Virus genome (UHGV): UHGV-0115609
DNA: 34,273 nt
From: a virus
Strand: one strand, 5' to 3'
This document shows positions 1-29,466 of this stretch, one piece after another (the first letter of the stretch is position 1; each line of letters opens with the position of its first letter). Both the position numbers and the translations under genes were made by a program. The notes below the pieces were generated by a model. The model was not told the origin of the DNA. It saw only the letters and a program-made list of their open reading frames with translations, and searched no databases.

Positions 1-354
1 TCTGGCAGCCTGAGTTCACAGATAAAACACTCTCCAGGAAACCCGGGGCGGTTCAACACCGATTTACGTGCTCTTTATGACAAGCATAACGTTGCTGGGA
101 TCACGGCATCGCAGACAAACCGTGAAGGTGGCGCGTCAGAAGTTGCCACAATGATGCACGCTGCCGACAACATCGAAAAAGTACGTATTGCTGACCTGGT
201 AATAACGATCAACAAAACCGAAGAAGAAGAAGCGAAAGGAGAGGCTCGTCTCTACTTTGCTGGTTCACGTAACCAGCAGGGAGGGATCAGCATTCGCGTT
301 AAACAAAACCTCGAACAAATGCGCTTCATTGAGCGAATCTTAGACGTTACCTAA
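1..354 (+). CDS. Replicative DNA helicase (DnaB-like), C-terminal fragment; 5' end lies outside the window
   Basis: Frame 1 is open from base 1 to the stop at 352-354. The tail (...ITASQTNREGGASEV..., ...RLYFAGSRNQQGGISIRVKQNLEQMRF) resembles the C-terminal region of DnaB-family helicases; a primase gene follows immediately, as in helicase-primase operons. Confidence 0.55.
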   Translation, partial: SGSLSSQIKHSPGNPGRFNTDLRALYDKHNVAGITASQTNREGGASEVATMMHAADNIEKVRIADLVITINKTEEEEAKGEARLYFAGSRNQQGGISIRVKQNLEQMRFIERILDVT

Positions 355-5758: not shown

Positions 5759-5833
5759 GATGGTGTAGCTCAGCGGTAGAGCAGTTGGCTGTTAACCAAC
5801 TGGTCGGTGGTTCGAATCCACCCACCATCGCCA
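5759..5833 (+). tRNA. tRNA-Asn (anticodon GTT)
   Basis: Cloverleaf by hand: acceptor GATGGTG/CACCATC, D-arm GCTCAGCGGTAGAGC, anticodon stem GTTGG/CCAAC with loop CTGTTAA, T-arm GGTGG-TTCGAAT-CCACC, discriminator G, encoded CCA. Confidence 0.85.
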
Positions 5834-5838
5834 ATTTA

Positions 5839-5925
5839 GGGGAGTTAGTCCGTAGGGGCAGCGGGGTAGACTGTAAATCTACTGTCATTGCGACTCGGGT
5901 GGTTCGACTCCATCACTCCCCACCA
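5839..5925 (+). tRNA. tRNA-Tyr (anticodon GTA), type II with long variable arm
   Basis: Acceptor GGGGAGT/ACTCCCC, anticodon stem GTAGA/TCTAC with loop CTGTAAA, long variable arm, T-loop TTCGACT, encoded CCA. The anticodon arm closely resembles E. coli tRNA-Tyr. Confidence 0.75.
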
Positions 5926-5929
5926 AATT

Positions 5930-6005
5930 GCCGGTTTAGCTCAGTTGGTAGAGCGCCTGCCTTGTAAGCAGGATGTCAGCGGTTCGATCCCGTTAACCGG
6001 CACCA
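5930..6005 (+). tRNA. tRNA-Thr (anticodon TGT)
   Basis: Acceptor GCCGGTT/AACCGGC, D-arm AGCTCAGTTGGTAGAGC, anticodon stem CCTGC/GCAGG with loop CTTGTAA, T-loop TTCGATC, encoded CCA. Confidence 0.8.
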
Positions 6006-6006
6006 A

Positions 6007-6095
6007 CACAACAGGTAAGAGCATTGGGCGAATCGGCGATACTGACCCACAAGCCCGTAAATCGATAGAGTCAGACCAGTGCTCTTACCGTTGTG
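6007..6095 (+). ncRNA. Long hairpin H2 starting 1 nt after the tRNA-Thr CCA
   Basis: Left arm CACAACAGGTAAGAGCATTGG (6007-6027) pairs with right arm CCAGTGCTCTTACCGTTGTG (6076-6095), with one bulge and one mismatch. Confidence 0.45.
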
Positions 6096-6145
6096 AGGAA
6101 GTGCAGCTCTTTGAAGCAACCAGAAGATAAGCATCTGGCTTCACA

Positions 6146-6228
6146 ACACAACGATAAGATCATTACGGTTAATCGTCGTTCATGTGCACAATGACTGGTC
6201 GAAAGGTAGTGATCTTACCGTTGTGGTG
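6146..6228 (+). ncRNA. Long hairpin H3, paralogous to H2
   Basis: Left arm CACAACGATAAGATCATTAC pairs with right arm GGTAGTGATCTTACCGTTGTGGTG; shares the CACAAC...GTAAGA...CGTTGTG framework with H2. Confidence 0.4.
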
Positions 6229-6369
6229 GATTCGCAGACTGATGCGATAGCTTTCTTGGATGTTAGGGAAATGCGGCCGCAAATCTTCCCTTTCGCGAGC
6301 GGTGATCGTCCGTAGTCCTAATTGGCTGCACCGTATGCCGGAGATTCAGTACCGGCCACCACAACGGCC

Positions 6370-6456
6370 GGAGAGTAGGGAGCATGGTGCTCAAGCGGTC
6401 TTGAAAACCGTCCCATTGCGCAAGCGATGATGGTTCGATTCCATTACTCTCCGCCA
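6370..6456 (+). tRNA. tRNA-Ser (anticodon TGA), type II with long variable arm
   Basis: Acceptor GGAGAGT/ACTCTCC, anticodon stem GCGGT/ACCGT with loop CTTGAAA, long variable arm, T-loop TTCGATT, discriminator G, encoded CCA. Confidence 0.75.
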
Positions 6457-17173: not shown

Positions 17174-17502
17174 AGATATTACCTTCTTAATTTTGTGAGC
17201 CACATAGTGCGGCGAGAATTTGATCTGTATAGATTGGGACTTACTTAGGCACTTAAGGAGGAGACTCACGAAGAAGGGAAATCAGAAGATAACACTGAAC
17301 TGAGACTGCTTTACTAAAACTGCTTACATAAGGTCTGTCTTGCAAACCAACGATGCTATTAACGCATACCCCTTCTTTTCATGCAACCTTTATTTTTCAA
17401 AGATAACTAATTTTTGTCACCATTGGTTTAGTAAACGTTAACGAACCAGACGATGCCAGACACCTTTACAGAGAACAGATGCCCGCCAATTGGCGGGCAT
17501 CA

Positions 17503-21456: not shown

Positions 21457-23796
21457 ATGGCAAAAGGAAAATCCGCACTGGCACTTGCTCTGAAAAAGAA
21501 AATCGGTAGCAACGACGAAATTCAGAAAGTAACTCATTGGATTGACACAGGCTTTCCTCCGTTAAACAAAGCTATTTCCGGTCGTTACGATGGCGGTTTC
21601 CCATGTGGTCGTATCGTAGAAGTATTCGGGCCACCAAGCGCGGGGAAATGTGTTACCGCAGACACCATGCTGCTGACGGAGCGTGGAATGGTAACAGTGA
21701 AAGAACTGTTTGAGATTGAGGGGCACAAAGCAACATGCACTACTCGCGATGTAGAGCATAACGTTGGACTCATCAATGAAAATGGCGTGATAGAGAAGAC
21801 CTCACACCTGACATGGAACAACCGTCGCAAATTCAAGCGTATTAAGCTGGCATCAGGCGGTTATATCGAGGCTACGTTCCGTCACCCAATCCGTGTGGTT
21901 GACGACTTAGGTAATGTCGTCTGGCGACATGCTGAAAAAATCAGTGTAGGCGACACGATTCCTTCAATGGTTGGCACACATCAATTCGGCGATCAGCACC
22001 TGGATGCCAATATCGCAAAACTGATGGGCTATTTAATTGCTGACGGATACGTGGCCTCTGAAAATTCAGTGAATTTTTCTAACACAGATCCTTTCATCAA
22101 GGATGAGTACTACCGCCTCATTTCGCTGGTATCAGACAAGATGCCAGTTACGAGAAAACATAACGGCTCGGAAGACCATGTGCTGTTTAGCAAAGAGGTG
22201 CGTTCGCTGCTTTTTAAAGAGTATGGTCTGGAGTATGAGAAAGCTGCTGGCAAGCAGGTTCCGTTGAGTGTGCGTCGCGCCAATAGCGAGGCTCAAATTG
22301 CATTCCTTCGCGGCTACTTTGAGCTGGAATGCCACGTCAATGATGGTCGCTGCATTGAGGTTGTGAGCGCGAGTGGGCTGCTGCTACAGCAAATTCGCCT
22401 CATGCTCCTGAATCTGGGGATTACGTCAACTATCTCTGAAAAACACGTCGCGGGTTATGAAAATACATATTACCGGCTGTCATTCAGTGGCTCTAATTAC
22501 GACCTTTTTCTGTCAACGATTGGTTTCGAATCTCCGGCACGTTTATCAGTGGCAACCAAACGGGACATTGGTTTTGACCGCACTTACTCAGGCTATGTTC
22601 CGCACATCAGCGGCTTAGTGAAATCACTCTACGAGTCGCTCACCAAGACCACCCGTGAAGACTACGCTCTGGTAGACCACGTTATTGGCCGCGGCGATCG
22701 TGTCGGAATAGACAAACTGCGAGAAATCTATGTCTCCTTCATTGGCAGAAAGAATCGTTTTAACGAGCATCTGTTTGCACAACTGGCAGCGGTAATTGGC
22801 TCTAACTTGTTCTACGACGAAGTCGTGGCTATTGAGGAAGGTGAAGCACCAACGTTCGACGTAGCGATGCCGGAAACACACTCTTTCTGGTCTAACGGGA
22901 TTATCAGCCACAACACATTCCTTGCAACAGCAGCGATGATCTCCGCTCAAAAACAAGATGGTCTGGCGGTATTCCTCGATCATGAAAACAGTTTTGACGT
23001 TGGCCTGGCTGTAGCCAATGGCCTGAACGCAGATGAGGATGACGGTCAGTGGGTATACAAGCAGCCAGATACCTTCGAAGACTCTGTAGAGTTGATCGGC
23101 ACAATACTTAAATTGGTTCGTGATGAAGAGCTTATCCCCGAATCAGCACCTATCTGTATCGTGGCTGACTCTCTTGCGTCTATGGTTCCGAACTCCAAAG
23201 CCGAGAAGTTCGAAAAGATGGCTGAAGGCACTGCCAAAGACAAAGATCAGCTAAACATGAACGACAATACGGCACTGGCTCGTGCGACGAGTGCGAACTT
23301 CCCTACTCTGGCTTTGTGGGCACGCAAATACAACGCCTGCATCATCTTCTTGAATCAGGTTCGCACAAAAATCGGTGTAATGTTTGGCGACCCTACTACG
23401 TCGCCAGGTGGAGATTCACCGAAGTTTTACGCTTCTGTGCGCATCCGTCTCGGTGCATCGGTGATGAAGGATGGGAAAGAGAAGATCGGCCAGGACGTAG
23501 GCGCAGAATGCATCAAAAACAAAGTTGCACCACCGTATGGCAAATGCACCTGGAAATTCTACTTCGATCCTACTCGTGGCCTCGACGTTATCGAGTCGCT
23601 CGTCGAGTACATGCTGGAAGAAGGATACCTGCCAAAGAACGCCAGCGGGCGAGTTGAAATTGGTGACAAGAAATACACCAAATCGCAGATCGTCGACATG
23701 TATCGGGAGAAGCCATTAGCAGAAATCATTGCTGCGTTACAGGCGATAGATGACCGACGAGAGAAGACATCACCAACAGAAGAACTAGAAGATTAA
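21457..23796 (+). CDS. recA: RecA-family recombinase precursor containing an intein
   Basis: N-extein ...PCGRIVEVFGPPSAGK and C-extein TFLATAAM...AVFLDHENSFD...QPDTFEDS...IFLNQVRTKIGVMFGDPTTSPGGDSPKFYASVRIRL are near-colinear with bacterial RecA. The P-loop GPPSAGK/T is split by a 422-aa insertion. Confidence 0.9.
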   Translation: MAKGKSALALALKKKIGSNDEIQKVTHWIDTGFPPLNKAISGRYDGGFPCGRIVEVFGPPSAGKCVTADTMLLTERGMVTVKELFEIEGHKATCTTRDVEHNVGLINENGVIEKTSHLTWNNRRKFKRIKLASGGYIEATFRHPIRVVDDLGNVVWRHAEKISVGDTIPSMVGTHQFGDQHLDANIAKLMGYLIADGYVASENSVNFSNTDPFIKDEYYRLISLVSDKMPVTRKHNGSEDHVLFSKEVRSLLFKEYGLEYEKAAGKQVPLSVRRANSEAQIAFLRGYFELECHVNDGRCIEVVSASGLLLQQIRLMLLNLGITSTISEKHVAGYENTYYRLSFSGSNYDLFLSTIGFESPARLSVATKRDIGFDRTYSGYVPHISGLVKSLYESLTKTTREDYALVDHVIGRGDRVGIDKLREIYVSFIGRKNRFNEHLFAQLAAVIGSNLFYDEVVAIEEGEAPTFDVAMPETHSFWSNGIISHNTFLATAAMISAQKQDGLAVFLDHENSFDVGLAVANGLNADEDDGQWVYKQPDTFEDSVELIGTILKLVRDEELIPESAPICIVADSLASMVPNSKAEKFEKMAEGTAKDKDQLNMNDNTALARATSANFPTLALWARKYNACIIFLNQVRTKIGVMFGDPTTSPGGDSPKFYASVRIRLGASVMKDGKEKIGQDVGAECIKNKVAPPYGKCTWKFYFDPTRGLDVIESLVEYMLEEGYLPKNASGRVEIGDKKYTKSQIVDMYREKPLAEIIAALQAIDDRREKTSPTEELED
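21649..22914 (+). mobile_element. Intein (class 1) with LAGLIDADG homing-endonuclease domain, inserted in the RecA Walker A motif
   Basis: Begins with Cys (CVTADTMLL, block A), has a TxxH block B (ATFRHP) and ends ...HSFWSNGIISHN followed by Thr (+1). Internal LAGLIDADG motifs KLMGYLIADGYV and FLRGYFELECHV. Removing it restores GPPSAGKT. Confidence 0.85.
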
Positions 23797-25991: not shown

Positions 25992-26323
25992 AGGCCATCC
26001 CATTCGCTCTGTTGTTCCTTTCCTCGATCGTTGTGGCCGACACCACTGTTTATCAGTGTGAAATGTCTGTAGCCGACGTTAAGAATGGCGCTCTTACCGA
26101 CGTCATAAAAGCACCATATGGAGCGATGGTCGTAGACAGCGGCGACCAGTTCTATGTTGTGCGTGACGATCGAGTGTTGTCATCCCCATATCTCACAAAT
26201 CGTAATGGCAAATTAACCGGCGTCGGAGAAGACCACTTCGTATACAACAAATACAAGGGCTTCTATGGCGTTCACGCTTCTCAGCAAAGCTACCTTTTCG
26301 ATGACTGCAAGGAGGTTGGATAA
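25988..26323 (+). CDS. Secreted hypothetical protein with N-terminal signal peptide (111 aa)
   Basis: Signal-like MKAIPFALLFLSSIVVADT; RBS AGAGGTGG upstream. Confidence 0.55.
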   Translation: MKAIPFALLFLSSIVVADTTVYQCEMSVADVKNGALTDVIKAPYGAMVVDSGDQFYVVRDDRVLSSPYLTNRNGKLTGVGEDHFVYNKYKGFYGVHASQQSYLFDDCKEVG

Positions 26324-26535
26324 TGGCATTAACACTGGCAGGTCTGGAAATCGAGAAAACAAGCGGCTACTGGCGTGCTAAGGGTTTCAAGCAGCCTGGC
26401 ATTCTTGAGCGTCTGGAACGTGAAGATGGGTATATCGTCCACCAGCGGCGTGAATGGCGTATGTACGATCCAGAAACAGGAAAACTGACTACAAAAGCCG
26501 GAACACTTTGGGGCCTGTTGAAGAAAATACACTAA
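26323..26535 (+). CDS. Hypothetical protein (70 aa)
   Basis: ORF coupled to the upstream gene (ATAATGG overlap). Confidence 0.45.
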   Translation: MALTLAGLEIEKTSGYWRAKGFKQPGILERLEREDGYIVHQRREWRMYDPETGKLTTKAGTLWGLLKKIH

Positions 26536-26543
26536 TAGCACCA

Positions 26544-27025
26544 ACCACTGCGGTGAGTAGCCAGCTCACCGCATTCGTATCAGCTCATTATCCACTGTGG
26601 TCTGCAGTCCTCTCTTCCTACATATCTGCTAACCACTGTAGCGAGTAGACAGCCTTTCATTCGCATCAAACAACCACTATGGTGAGTATTGGAGTGAGAT
26701 GTCCAGCGGGTATCCACTATGGTGAGTAAGCCTTTGCTGTTTTCAGTGGATATCCACTCGCCACAGTGGATACGCTCAAAGATGAGGGCGACAACAACCA
26801 CTATAGACAGTAAATTTTCCAAGATACCCAGTGACCACTAACCTCGCAGCCCTTGTTTCATCAGTGTTAGTGATCACTAACATTTAATTCAGTATTTGCA
26901 TTCTACTGCCTACAGTGGTTATCAACAGATAACGATACTCACTATAGTGGATAGCGAATTACAGATATAAGTAAGGCTCACTACAGTGGATAGTGAGCCT
27001 TACTACTAACTACAGTGGTTGGGCT
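26544..27025. repeat. Iteron array downstream of repA (incA-like copy-control locus): at least 11 copies of a CCACT(A/G)T(A/G)G / C(T/C)A(T/C)AGTGG(A/T)T core in both orientations
   Basis: Visible repeats: AACCACTGCGGTGAGTAG, ATCCACTGTGG, AACCACTGTAGCGAGTAG, AACCACTATGGTGAGTA (twice), CAGTGGATA, CACAGTGGATAC, AACCACTATAGACAG, CTACAGTGGTTATC, CACTATAGTGGATAG, CACTACAGTGGATAG, CTACAGTGGTTGGG. Also contains the 16-bp perfect palindrome GTTAGTGATCACTAAC (26866-26881). Confidence 0.8.
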
Positions 27026-28079
27026 ATTTGCGAGTCTTTGCCTTGCGCAACTCTTCGAGAAGCGCCAGTTCTTCTTTACTCAACATGACCATTTTGCCTT
27101 CTTTTTCGTCAGGCACAACGTCGATAATGTCATCTTGATTCTCATCTGGGAGGCTATATTCCGTCTCATCATTATCGATTTTTGTTGATATTTGTGCCTG
27201 GCGTAACTTTGGCCGCCTATAGTGGATGATGAAGTAGACCGAGTTTCCGCGCTTAACTTCCGTGTAATCGAGATATCCTATCTCTCGCAGCTGTTCCATA
27301 GCCTTTCTTACCGTCGCATTCTGAGTAATAGTGCGACTTGTCAGATTAAGTCTGGCGCGTAAACGAGCTAGTGATATTGGTGCCGGATCAGGCGGCAAAC
27401 TTTCAATAAAAGTATAAAGCGCCTGAGCGGATTCTTTTCTTGAGAGTTCGTTTATAGCCCGGAGTTGCAGAAGAACCTTTTTGTCGAACTGGTAGAGTTC
27501 GAAAATCTTGGGATCTGCTTTCAGTTCGACCGTATCGTGCTTGACACTATATTTTGCCGTTTGCACAAGATGCGTTACGTAAAACTCATCAGAGCCTTTG
27601 CTACGGAACGAGATGGTATTTGTGGCAATACGGCTTAGCGAACTGTCCAGGCGTTTGCGTAACTTCGCTGATGACCTGGCGGTCGGAATGCCACACAGCC
27701 TTACAAACTCAACGAACGGCAACGTGACAGTATCGCCAACGACCTTGTGTTTGGCAAACGCGTGGATTATTCCCACCCACGTTTTAAAGTCGTTATCCAT
27801 ATCAAGCCGAAGGCCAGAGATCCTTATGTCTTCGTACCCTTCGGCTTTTGCCAGAGACAGCTGTTTGAGTTCAGCAGAGGCATCCATAGAGACCATTTGC
27901 CCCTTTCTTCCTCTGGATGTCGATTTCAGCGTCGGAACGAAGAGGCCCAGACGCATCAAAGCAACAGGCTGAACAGTGTTATTAGTGTTAGGAACCAACG
28001 TAACAACTTCGCCTGTCTTTTTATCTGTTTCTGAAAATGCTTCAACGATCGCTATGTTTTTATTGCCGTTTTCGCTCAT
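27024..28079 (-). CDS. repA: Replication initiator RepA (P1/IncFIB RepA-like iteron-binding protein)
   Basis: Segments [59 protein letters not shown] and [27 protein letters not shown] match my recollection of the P1 RepA family; the gene is bracketed by iteron arrays. Confidence 0.85.
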
Positions 28080-28122
28080 TCCAAATGTCTCTTGTTATTC
28101 GACGGCTTTGGTGGCCTTTGCT

Positions 28123-28243
28123 GATTACAGTGGATAGTAGCACTCATCACAGCGGTTATCCTACCGTCTATAGTGGTTTTTCTCCTCTCTATAGTGGTTG
28201 CTTTGCTCCCTATAGTGGATTATTCGCTCTCTATAGTGGATAT
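28123..28243. repeat. Six direct iterons (consensus CTCTATAGTGG(A/T)T) at 21-22 bp spacing, abutting the repA start (incC-like, probable autoregulated promoter/origin iterons)
   Basis: AGTGG/AGCGG cores at 28129, 28151, 28172, 28193, 28214 and 28235 (spacings 22, 21, 21, 21, 21), about two helical turns apart as in iteron replicons. Confidence 0.85.
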
Positions 28244-28289
28244 CGATCATGTCTGAAGGCAGATGGCGCAACGGTTTGAGGTGGGCGGG

Positions 28290-28408
28290 GATCTTATTGG
28301 GTCTTTATGGGTCTCTTTGGTTCTCTTTGTGATCTGAATTACTGGATCGGGCCTGTGGATAAAATCAGAGGATTTCAAGAACAGGTAACTCTACTCTTCT
28401 GTGGATAT
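28290..28408. promoter_or_regulatory. Origin-like module B: GATC sites and degenerate (G)GGTCTCTTTG repeats plus DnaA boxes
   Basis: GATC at 28290, 28331 and 28345; three tandem GGTCT/GTTCT-containing 11-mers (28297-28330); perfect DnaA box TGTGGATAA (28354-28362, complement of TTATCCACA) and near-perfect TGTGGATAT (28400-28408). Confidence 0.7.
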
Positions 28409-28519
28409 TTAAGGACATAAGAATCATGACTAAGAGTAGAGTTTAAAATATATCTATGTATATCAGTATGTTAATGAAGAATTAAGTCATTAAGTTATCC
28501 ATAAAAGACAATGTGCTCT

Positions 28520-28625
28520 ACTCTCTACAGTGGATATATACAGCTCTCCAGAGTGGTTGTTTTACTCTTCATAGCGGTTATTCAGCTCTCTACAGAGGTT
28601 TCTTTGCTCTCCATAGTGGATGGCA
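28520..28625. repeat. Second set of five direct iterons at 21-23 bp spacing
   Basis: Cores AGTGG 28529, AGTGG 28552, AGCGG 28573, AGAGG 28594, AGTGG 28615, each preceded by CTCT(A/C)(C/T); separated from the first set by an AT-rich stretch (28410-28510). Confidence 0.8.
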
Positions 28626-28662
28626 ACACCCTTTCAGACCAGTAACCGCAACGGCTAGAGGC

Positions 28663-28734
28663 GATCGGGGATCTCTTTGGATCTTCTATTTGATCTTACT
28701 TGGGATCTCTTATTTGGATCTATCCAGTGGATAA
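28663..28734. promoter_or_regulatory. Origin-like module A: cluster of six GATC (Dam) sites plus a DnaA-like box
   Basis: GATC at 28663, 28670, 28680, 28692, 28704 and 28717 within 58 bp, embedded in (T/G)GGATCT repeats; AGTGGATAA (28726-28734) is one mismatch from a DnaA box. Confidence 0.75.
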
Positions 28735-28821
28735 CTGGGATAAGTAAAACAGGCAAATGCAGATTAAGGTATGCCTAATGAGTTATCGTAGCATCGGCCA
28801 ATAACTACTGAAAAAACGATT

Positions 28822-29466
28822 ATGGATCTAAAACGCACGCGCTGGGTTCGTCGTCTTGAGGACGGCTCCTACACTATCGAATCAAATTCCAACCTGAATA
28901 AGCAGAAGTTGCTTTGTGACATCTGCGGTATAGCGGCGAAGTGCCCGATCTACGAAACCAGAATTAAACTTGATAAGGCTGGTGTGAATTTTCATTTAAA
29001 CAGTTGCATCAGGTACGTTCCATTGCTCGCATTTCGTAAACCGATCATCGGATTGGATGCACCCTACTTCAACACACTCCGTTCAGGTGTGACGTGGCAA
29101 GATCGTTTATCACCAGACAAGCTGATTTGCCTTGTATCCGCAGACACAGGGAAAATCATCCGTTTTGGGAAAGTAGACAAGGTTTACTCAGGCCCAGTAG
29201 ACGAAATGTTGCGGAAACACAGCCGGTTTAATCATCTCTGTATGGGTGGTGAGAAAATCGAGAAGGTAGAAGAAGTGATCCGCAAATCCTACGGACACTT
29301 CCTGACCAAAGATAGCCTGCTCACCGCAATCTACATCAGACATGTAAAACGTGAGTTCGACCTCGAATACCACAGTGAAGAAGAGCTTAACCTTGTTGAC
29401 CCACGTCCAAAAGCTGGCGTCATAAGCATAAACGCAGCGCGTAAAAAGCCCACTGAGACGTTTTAA
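28822..29466 (+). CDS. Hypothetical protein (214 aa)
   Basis: Long ORF just beyond the origin region; no motif recognised. Confidence 0.55.
   Translation: MDLKRTRWVRRLEDGSYTIESNSNLNKQKLLCDICGIAAKCPIYETRIKLDKAGVNFHLNSCIRYVPLLAFRKPIIGLDAPYFNTLRSGVTWQDRLSPDKLICLVSADTGKIIRFGKVDKVYSGPVDEMLRKHSRFNHLCMGGEKIEKVEEVIRKSYGHFLTKDSLLTAIYIRHVKREFDLEYHSEEELNLVDPRPKAGVISINAARKKPTETF

Follow-up and report, generated by a model that had tools for sequence, protein, structure and literature searches.

The best described replicons with an arrangement like the one treated here are those of phage P1 and of the F plasmid (RepFIB). In the curated P1 record, a DnaA site and five Dam sites are followed by five incC iterons with the promoter PrepA, by repA and by nine incA iterons, which are annotated as RepA-binding, are spaced 30-41 bp apart and have the orientation ------+++, the three nearest repA pointing in the same direction as incC. 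The F RepFIB replicon has its parts in the same order, namely DnaA boxes, GATC repeats, upstream iterons (BCDD'D''), rep and downstream iterons (E-K), and its downstream block comprises approximately 6-7 iterons that point in both directions, interrupted by about 100 bp free of iterons. When supplied in trans by itself, the RepFIB downstream block (EFGHIJ) cured the pO157 FIB replicon, an effect that the upstream block lacked, and the authors of that work proposed Rep-mediated handcuffing between upstream and downstream iterons (PMC11983097). Here we examine positions 26541-27022 of a 34,273-nucleotide stretch of the virus genome UHGV-0115609 (this whole stretch is hereafter called the window), which lie next to a predicted initiator gene, repA. 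We consider it highly probable that this segment is the control block of a RepFIB/P1-type replicon maintaining an SSU5-like phage, and that a perfect palindrome inside the block is a remodelled form of a decayed repeat unit.

Iterons, initiator and origin-like modules

Iterons were located with a 20-nt weight matrix trained solely on the 11 repeats upstream of repA (28118-28243 and 28518-28623) and applied to both strands of all 34,273 bases; the same matrix was applied to six relatives, pHCM2, pMT1, two Enterobacter plasmids, pGS04EC-1 and SSU5 (loci L003-L008). We found 12 matches of 16-25 bits each at 26541-27022, six per strand in the order -----++-++++, in agreement with a preliminary description of this DNA that had counted at least 11 in both orientations. 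Outside the replicon there was no match of 12 bits or more in the window, and the shuffled region gave a mean of 0.02 matches. The array spans the entire non-coding gap from the stop codon of a Cra-like open reading frame (ORF; 26535) to that of repA (27024), and its features are the following:

26323..26535, plus strand: Cra-like ORF, 70 aa, last gene of a rightward operon, at the left edge of the array (ORF list; in Escherichia phage Cyrano, CYRAN_62, 'P1 Cra protein')
26541..26560, minus strand: iteron 1, CTACTCACCGCAGTGGTTGG on the minus strand (18.7 bits; kept in all relatives)
26549..26573, plus strand: hairpin with a 10-bp stem, directly 3' of the Cra-like gene and overlapping iteron 1 (RNA fold -19.3 kcal/mol, z -4.5)
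26588..26607, minus strand: iteron 2 (16.2 bits)
26629..26648, minus strand: iteron 3 (21.8 bits)
26670..26689, minus strand: iteron 4 (20.8 bits)
26710..26729, minus strand: iteron 5 (23.2 bits)
26734..26753, plus strand: iteron 6 (19.4 bits)
26754..26773, plus strand: iteron 7 (19.6 bits)
26794..26813, minus strand: iteron 8 (24.8 bits)
26814..26902, no strand assigned: iteron-free spacer, 89 bp, of equal length in all seven replicons scanned (the window and L003-L008)
26823..26862, no strand assigned: conserved spacer core AGATACCCAGTGACCACTAACCTCGCAGCCCTTGTTTCATC, 40 nt, containing box 1 (see below)
26903..26922, plus strand: iteron 9 (22.8 bits)
26935..26954, plus strand: iteron 10 (20.0 bits)
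26970..27004, minus strand: hairpin with a 15-bp stem, just 3' of the repA stop (inverted repeat; RNA fold -26.3 kcal/mol, z -6.5)
26974..26993, plus strand: iteron 11, inside the hairpin 3' of repA (16.7 bits; identical in five of the six relatives scanned, with two bases different in pMT1)
27003..27022, plus strand: iteron 12, abutting the repA stop codon (18.9 bits)

The hairpin at 26970-27004 is the probable terminator of repA and has a counterpart in F RepFIB, where an inverted pair (arms 6592-6614/6622-6644) directly follows the rep stop. The hairpin at 26549-26573, which is without a T-run, is a possible terminator of the rightward operon; a terminator scan called neither of the two flanking hairpins.

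The repA product has Pfam matches to Rep3_N (WH1; E 1.3e-10, 42.2 bits against a cut-off of 22.4) and Rep3_C (WH2; E 1.1e-4, 22.8 bits against a cut-off of 21.1). It is 60% identical to F RepFIB Rep over 329 aa (E 5e-143), 49% identical to P1 RepA over 267 aa (E 3e-93) and 99.7% identical to the RepA of Cyrano, while no PDB sequence matched it at E 0.01 or better. Both the domains and the homology place it among the Rep_3 (WH1/WH2) initiators, in the RepFIB/P1 subfamily. Together with the IncFIB typing of matching plasmids (see below), these results bear out the earlier view of a RepA/iteron replicon with an initiator bracketed by iteron arrays, 11 iterons lying upstream and 12 downstream. The replicon comprises the following further features:

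27024..28079, minus strand: repA, 351 aa, predicted iteron-binding initiator (Pfam Rep3_N and Rep3_C; homology to RepFIB and P1 RepA)
27210..27229, plus strand: weak iteron-like site in the 3' part of repA (14.2 bits; same position in all relatives)
28118..28243, plus strand: proximal array of module A, six iterons with 21-22-bp phasing (repeat search, matrix)
28244..28365, no strand assigned: continuation of module A, with a GC-rich spacer, partly decayed GATC heptamers and a DnaA box (GATC at 28245, 28290, 28331 and 28345)
28518..28623, plus strand: distal array of module B, five iterons with 21-23-bp phasing (repeat search, matrix)
28624..28745, no strand assigned: continuation of module B, with a GC-rich spacer, six GATC and tandem DnaA-box-like sequences (alignment with P1 oriR)

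The upstream region thus listed consists of two tandem oriR-like modules about 380 bp apart, both of which carry phased iterons, a GC-rich CGCAACGG spacer, GATC-heptamer repeats and DnaA boxes, and all 11 iterons (6 + 5) have the same orientation with 21-23-bp phasing. Module A has a perfect DnaA box, TGTGGATAA, at 28354-28362, and its end resembles the F RepFIB origin in a by-eye comparison. In module B there are six GATC sites within 55 bp (28663-28720), and the end of the module, GGATCTATCCAGTGGATAA, with DnaA-box-like sequences at 28726-28743, is nearly identical to P1 oriR in the alignment. Judged by its sequence, module B is the best candidate for the replication origin. The iterons of module A may serve repA autoregulation, by analogy with related replicons, because a weak promoter-like site (minus strand, 28246-28219; promoter scan) overlaps them. 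Arrays A and B were both found in pHCM2, SSU5 and pGS04EC-1. The weak site at 27210-27229 may be a genuine binding site for RepA, or it may simply result from constraint on the conserved ...IIHYRRP... codons.

A sigma-70 scan gave weak promoter-like sites only, coincident with the TATAGT of iterons. The best sigma-70-like promoter of the region, TTAACA-16-TATATT, is on the minus strand at 28474-28447 and is directed at repA. It lies in the AT-rich stretch between the modules (28366-28517), which also contains a 12-bp inverted repeat at approximately 28387-28398 / 28431-28443. There was no Pfam match for the Cra-like ORF, for a 73-aa ORF across module B, for a 111-aa ORF or for a 214-aa downstream ORF.

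The replicon therefore combines phased upstream iterons accompanied by GATC and DnaA elements with a mixed, irregular downstream block, as found in replicons of the P1/RepFIB type. Its layout matches P1 and RepFIB part for part, and the array very probably corresponds to incA of P1 and to iterons E-K of RepFIB. The preliminary description had taken mixed orientation as suited to handcuffing-type copy control. The check proposed there, supplying the array in trans, has its equivalent in the experiment on the RepFIB block, the nearest relative to have been characterised. The copy-control reading agrees with the roles of incA and E-K, while the orientation itself is no special feature, since the P1 and F blocks are also mixed; it is a trait of the family and not a special adaptation.

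The two known systems nevertheless differ from the window element in several respects. Like P1, it is a phage kept as a plasmid with phased origin iterons, Dam heptamers and DnaA boxes, and both modules A and B align with oriR. Unlike it, P1 has an unrelated iteron sequence (GATGTGTGCTGGAGGGAAA), a single origin module and no 89-bp conserved spacer, and its par operon abuts incA. P1 is maintained at about one copy per chromosome, as compared with about 5.5 reported for Cyrano. The iterons are homologous to those of RepFIB, with which they share an ACTnnCTAyAG core, but the positions that determine specificity read AGTGGwT here and AGTTTAT in F, and true incompatibility with F-type FIB replicons is therefore doubtful. 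Further differences from RepFIB are the 12 downstream iterons, the two origin-like modules, an unrelated spacer sequence and a carrier that is a phage and not a conjugative plasmid.

The phage-plasmid carrier and the presumed role of the array

The 2.1 kb around the array share 99.0% identity with Escherichia phage Cyrano (pLF82), 85% with Salmonella phage SSU5 and 99-99.8% with many plasmids of E. coli, Shigella and E. albertii; the matching plasmids examined were about 110 kb in size, non-mobilizable and typed IncFIB. The order of genes in Cyrano is as in the window, with ligase, tRNAs, integrase, repressor, DNA polymerase III alpha, HicAB, UvsY, a gp32-like single-stranded DNA-binding protein, exonuclease, RecA, RepA and SbcCD, and its annotation reproduces the list of phage-type genes given earlier for the surroundings of repA. 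The rest of the Cyrano genome encodes terminase, capsid, tail, holin/endolysin, ParA, ParB-like and toxin-antitoxin proteins, and an adenine methyltransferase and several regulators are encoded as well. The gene set of SSU5-like phage-plasmids is thus present in the 99%-identical Cyrano, the window itself being the DNA-metabolism/replicon part only. Cyrano/pLF82 has been reported to be present at 5.5 copies per cell, to be inducible by ciprofloxacin and to form siphovirus particles, as determined by quantitative PCR and electron microscopy (PMC9928086), and the SSU5 supercommunity has been typed as IncFIB (PMC7969092).

The proposed phage-plasmid lifestyle was accordingly strengthened by the 99% identity to a virion-producing phage-plasmid with ParA and toxin-antitoxin genes, in which both partition and structural genes are present. 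An integrated prophage or a strictly lytic phage is argued against because Cyrano has maintenance genes, plasmid copies and virions. Both the phage-plasmid element and its replicon type are already known and published. No annotated feature was found under the array in the database records examined, and the searchable open-access papers gave no description of the array and nothing relevant on the iterons of pMT1, pHCM2 or SSU5.

More distant copies of the array (approximately 70-78% identity) occur in pHCM2 (S. Typhi), pMT1 (Y. pestis) and Enterobacter plasmids; the nucleotide identity of repA with SSU5, pHCM2 and pMT1 is about 85%, and the layout of the array is shared. The number of downstream iterons is 12 in the window, 13 in pHCM2, 14 in pMT1, 14 and 16 in the Enterobacter plasmids, 14 in pGS04EC-1 and 15 in SSU5, the window lineage having the fewest among the replicons scanned. 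The layout (-)n (+)2-3 (-) [89-bp gap] (+)4 recurs in all six relatives. No part of the replicon changes faster than the array, whose identity to the window is 68-75%, insertions and deletions of whole units included, where repA has about 85% and the upstream region 78-80%. In PLSDB, 186 plasmids matched repA and its flanks near full length at 95% identity or more, but the array was matched at 95% or more in only 64. These comparisons suggest that divergence or exchange is much more rapid in the control array than in repA, mainly via gain and loss of whole repeat units of approximately 40 bp.

If this locus works as its relatives do, the replicon would maintain a Cyrano/pLF82-type temperate siphovirus as a low-copy plasmid prophage. 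RepA monomers would bind all of the iterons. At the upstream arrays, RepA would open the origin with DnaA and repress the repA promoter, and at the downstream block it would be titrated and would also pair, in cis as well as in trans, with iterons of the origin (handcuffing). Titration and handcuffing would then stop initiation as the copy number rises, and would also confer incompatibility.

The iteron-free spacer and its palindrome

The 89-bp spacer lies between iterons 8 and 9, and its alignment among the relatives has a mean column identity of 93%. The invariant share of the 40-nt core among four diverged haplotypes is 90%; for repA coding sequence it is 80%, for the origin iterons 83-84% and for the left part of the array 46%. 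The core was identical or nearly so in 28 IMG/VR contigs and four GTDB genomes, although these matches were selected for the core because the search patterns fixed part of it. It is kept across haplotypes in which repA is about 15% different and the arrays are 25-32% different.

Two CCACT/TCACT boxes are present in the spacer, at 26835-26839 (box 1, within AGTGACCACTAACCT at 26831-26845) and at 26874-26878 (box 2). The boxes read GTGACCACTAACC and, in the relatives, GTAACCACTAACA; their reverse complements, TTAGTGGTCAC for box 1 and TTAGTGGTTAC for the relatives' box 2, match the iteron right half yAGTGGwTA at eight and nine of the nine positions, respectively. In addition, the CCACT cores at 26835 and 26874 continue the minus-iteron series with its period of about 40 bp (26545, 26592, 26633, 26674, 26714, 26754 and 26798). 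Because the boxes match the iteron half and stay in phase, the spacer looks like two decayed repeat units.

The box 1 and box 2 regions form imperfect inverted repeats in all haplotypes. RNAalifold gave a spacer consensus of nine pairs at -2.1 kcal/mol with one covarying pair, from only three haplotype classes; the pGS04EC class carries a double compensatory change from A:T to G:C, with A replaced by G in box 1 and T by C in box 2. The hairpin of the window lineage reaches -22 kcal/mol on the minus strand, with fold z-scores of -2.3 and -2.6. We regard a spacer stem-loop as a low-probability lead only. Other searches of this region were negative: the sigma-70 scan found no convincing promoter in the spacer, Rfam in E-value mode gave no match in 26000-29000, and pattern scans of 26500-28800 for IHF (WATCAANNNNTTR) and Tus-Ter (GNRNGTTGTAAYKA) sites found none. 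The array is also without DnaA-box consensus matches and GATC-heptamer repeats. A likeness, noticed by eye, of the majority haplotype GGTTTGTAACCA to a Ter core was rejected, as the invariant GTTGTAAC is missing and the likeness is lost in the window lineage.

Box 2 has its window-lineage form in the palindrome. This had been described as 16 bp long, GTTAGTGATCACTAAC, at 26866-26881 with a central GATC; position and GATC proved correct, while the symmetry is perfect over 18 bp (26865-26882), TGTTAGTGATCACTAACA. The GATC (26872-26875) is the sole one in the 482-bp array. A perfect palindrome of at least 18 bp occurred in 12.5% of shuffled 34-kb windows, which scales to about 0.2% per 482 bp, and the palindrome as a bare statistic is only modestly unusual. 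Its right arm is the lineage form of the family-conserved CCACTAAC box, matching the iteron core and lying in phase with the minus-oriented iterons. The right arm being such a remnant, there is no support for the earlier view that palindrome and iteron consensus are unrelated, although the arms, TAGTGAT, deviate from the iteron half yAGTGGwT and are a poorer match than the ancestral box.

In a survey of the analysed loci together with the 28 IMG/VR contigs and four GTDB genomes, the site fell into three haplotype classes: GGTTTGTAACCACTAACA (with one TGGGTTTG variant), TGTTTGCAACCACTAACA and the palindrome TGTTAGTGATCACTAACA. Five of the nine symmetric pairs are formed in the first two classes and all nine in the window class. 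No intermediate haplotypes were found in two IMG/VR scans and the GTDB genomes, which gave one chance match, in a metagenome-assembled genome of Bacillota, and the perfect palindrome was not found in the SSU5, pHCM2, pMT1, Enterobacter, Kluyvera and Buttiauxella relatives. The 55-mer that bears it is present in 63 PLSDB plasmids (62 from Escherichia and one from Shigella), that is, in nearly all of the 64 whose array is at least 95% identical to that of the window. Conservation within this lineage is uninformative on selection because the lineage is very tight (97% identity or more).

The spacer of the window differs from the pHCM2 haplotype by 15 substitutions, of which six are clustered at 26863-26874 and four of these (26865, 26869, 26872 and 26874) create the symmetry. 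When 15 random substitutions were simulated on the majority haplotype, a palindrome of 18 bp or more arose in 6.5e-5 of 200,000 trials, which makes independent neutral substitutions improbable as its source. At the positions concerned, two of the three inner changes give box 2 the same base as box 1, and with all three the left arm becomes more complementary to box 1; the remodelled box 2 also resembles its own right arm more closely. The palindrome most likely arose by templated or concerted mutation, that is, by quasi-palindrome correction or conversion from box 1. We infer the direction of change, toward the palindrome, from the non-palindromic form shared by two of the three classes, in an unrooted comparison. 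By these comparisons the palindrome would be a lineage-specific curiosity derived from an iteron remnant and not a conserved separate site.

Neither the window nor the 108-kb Cyrano genome, the vicinity of the repressor gene included, contains a second copy of the palindrome with three or fewer mismatches. A repeated phage-repressor operator was rejected on this ground, as the copy is the sole one in the window and in the whole Cyrano genome, and by eye there was no match to LexA, CRP, IHF, Ter, lac-type or TrpR-type operators. Initiator dimers bind inverted half-iteron operators that overlap the rep promoter in the case of mini-F RepE, pSC101 RepA and pPS10 RepA, and the palindrome arms and the boxes, by analogy, resemble the iteron right half. 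Unlike those operators, however, the site is located past the 3' end of repA, lacks conservation in the family and has arms that fit the iteron half imperfectly. An initiator-dimer operator was rejected as an identity for the palindrome, the site being about 140 bp beyond the repA stop, away from a promoter and not found in relatives. We know of no dimer operator for P1 or RepFIB RepA.

A second perfect palindrome in the array, AGTGGATATCCACT, is 14 bp long (26745-26758). It lies at the junction of iterons 6 and 7, which are both plus-oriented, and consists of two iteron right halves in inverted orientation. The arrays of the relatives scanned contain no perfect palindrome of at least 12 bp.

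Alternative readings and minor observations

The suggestion that the palindrome may bind a different factor could be put more strongly, as a dedicated site for another host or phage protein such as a dimeric helix-turn-helix regulator, or as a Dam/SeqA-sensitive site. Its length and perfection, the only GATC of the array at its center, the adenine methyltransferase and regulators of the phage, its fixation in the 63 plasmids and the rarity with which random substitution makes such a sequence all speak for a dedicated site. Nevertheless, relatives from SSU5 to Buttiauxella keep the spacer yet not the palindrome, LexA, CRP, Ter and IHF consensus matches were not found, and fixation in so tight a lineage says little about selection. 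As the palindrome is single in a 108-kb genome, the suggestion finds no support in our results, and we consider a dedicated site quite improbable. A partition centromere or a second replication origin in place of a control locus is far less probable still. Bidirectional iterated repeats can be centromeres, and origin-like modules are already duplicated in this replicon. However, the array has the same motif as the origin iterons and exactly the position of P1 incA and RepFIB E-K, it shows neither the GATC heptamers and DnaA-box consensus nor an obvious AT-rich block, and in Cyrano ParA is encoded about 30 kb, and the ParB-like genes about 45 kb, from the array.

A related alternative is that the spacer boxes and the palindrome form a second class of RepA site, with inverted or direct half-iterons bound by RepA dimers, or that the box 1/box 2 stem-loop is functional, in RNA or in single-stranded DNA. 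The boxes of the relatives fit the iteron half closely and in the 40-bp phase, within or beside a core that is 90% invariant; the double change in pGS04EC keeps one predicted pair, the three palindrome-making substitutions lift the pairing between box 1 and box 2 from 11 to 13 of 15, and the stem of the window lineage is a stable one. Against this, the consensus structure is very weak, its z-scores are modest, Rfam and the promoter scan gave nothing convincing, and the site is 140 bp past the repA stop with arms that fit the iteron half worse than the ancestral box did. We judge this alternative unlikely. The same holds for the broader possibility that the spacer is a functional module of its own, acting either as a stem-loop or as a second class of site for the initiator or a host factor, analogous in logic to the 39-mers on chromosome II of Vibrio cholerae; this too is a doubtful proposition. 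Were it true, the Escherichia lineage would have strengthened the spacer into an 18-bp palindrome and a 13-bp hairpin with a Dam site, perhaps in connection with the higher copy number (approximately 5.5), and, together with its two oriR-like modules, the SSU5-family replicon would be a mechanistically distinct variant of RepFIB/P1.

Several points weigh against the reading that we prefer, an incA/E-K-type control block with a remodelled decayed unit. RepA binding, incompatibility and an effect on copy number are extrapolated from homologues that are 49-60% identical and have different iterons. There are two oriR-like modules, where P1 and F have one, and either could be the one that fires or the one that pairs with the array. 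The spacer core is conserved like the best parts of repA, which a simple incA model does not explain. Finally, selection for a function of the palindrome may have contributed and remains a candidate. The 18-bp palindrome is nonetheless best seen as lineage-specific remodelling of the second decayed unit, with a role that is only putative.

The main value of this analysis is the correct filing of the array as an incA/E-K-type control block, very probably that of an IncFIB-typed SSU5-like phage-plasmid replicon. SSU5-like phage-plasmids are common in E. coli, S. Typhi (pHCM2), Y. pestis (pMT1) and Enterobacter; resistance genes are found on some of them. Because the RepFIB downstream block alone is effective, the iteron map (12 control iterons, 6 + 5 on the origin side, two modules) may be useful for the design of curing or incompatibility cassettes, and it may also aid the building of mini-replicons and the reading of copy-number variants. 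The variation in iteron number from 12 to 16, the conserved spacer core and the lineage-specific palindrome are small additions and not a new kind of system; likewise, the spacer core, the duplication of the origin module and the presumed concerted change behind the palindrome are minor points.

Some observations concern other parts of the window. ARAGORN predicted four tRNA genes (Asn, Tyr, Thr and Ser) in 5759-6456, as compared with three (Asn, Thr and Ser) in the Cyrano record, and the two sequences differ around the tRNA genes by insertions and deletions of a few hundred bases. The RecA-like ORF (21457-23796) encodes 779 aa, and because the matching plasmid protein is annotated as 'hint domain-containing protein', this suggests a RecA/UvsX-type recombinase interrupted by an intein. 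The longest palindrome in the window, GATGCCCGCCAATTGGCGGGCATC, is a perfect one of 24 bp at 17478-17501; it adjoins a HicB-like gene and is probably a bidirectional terminator.

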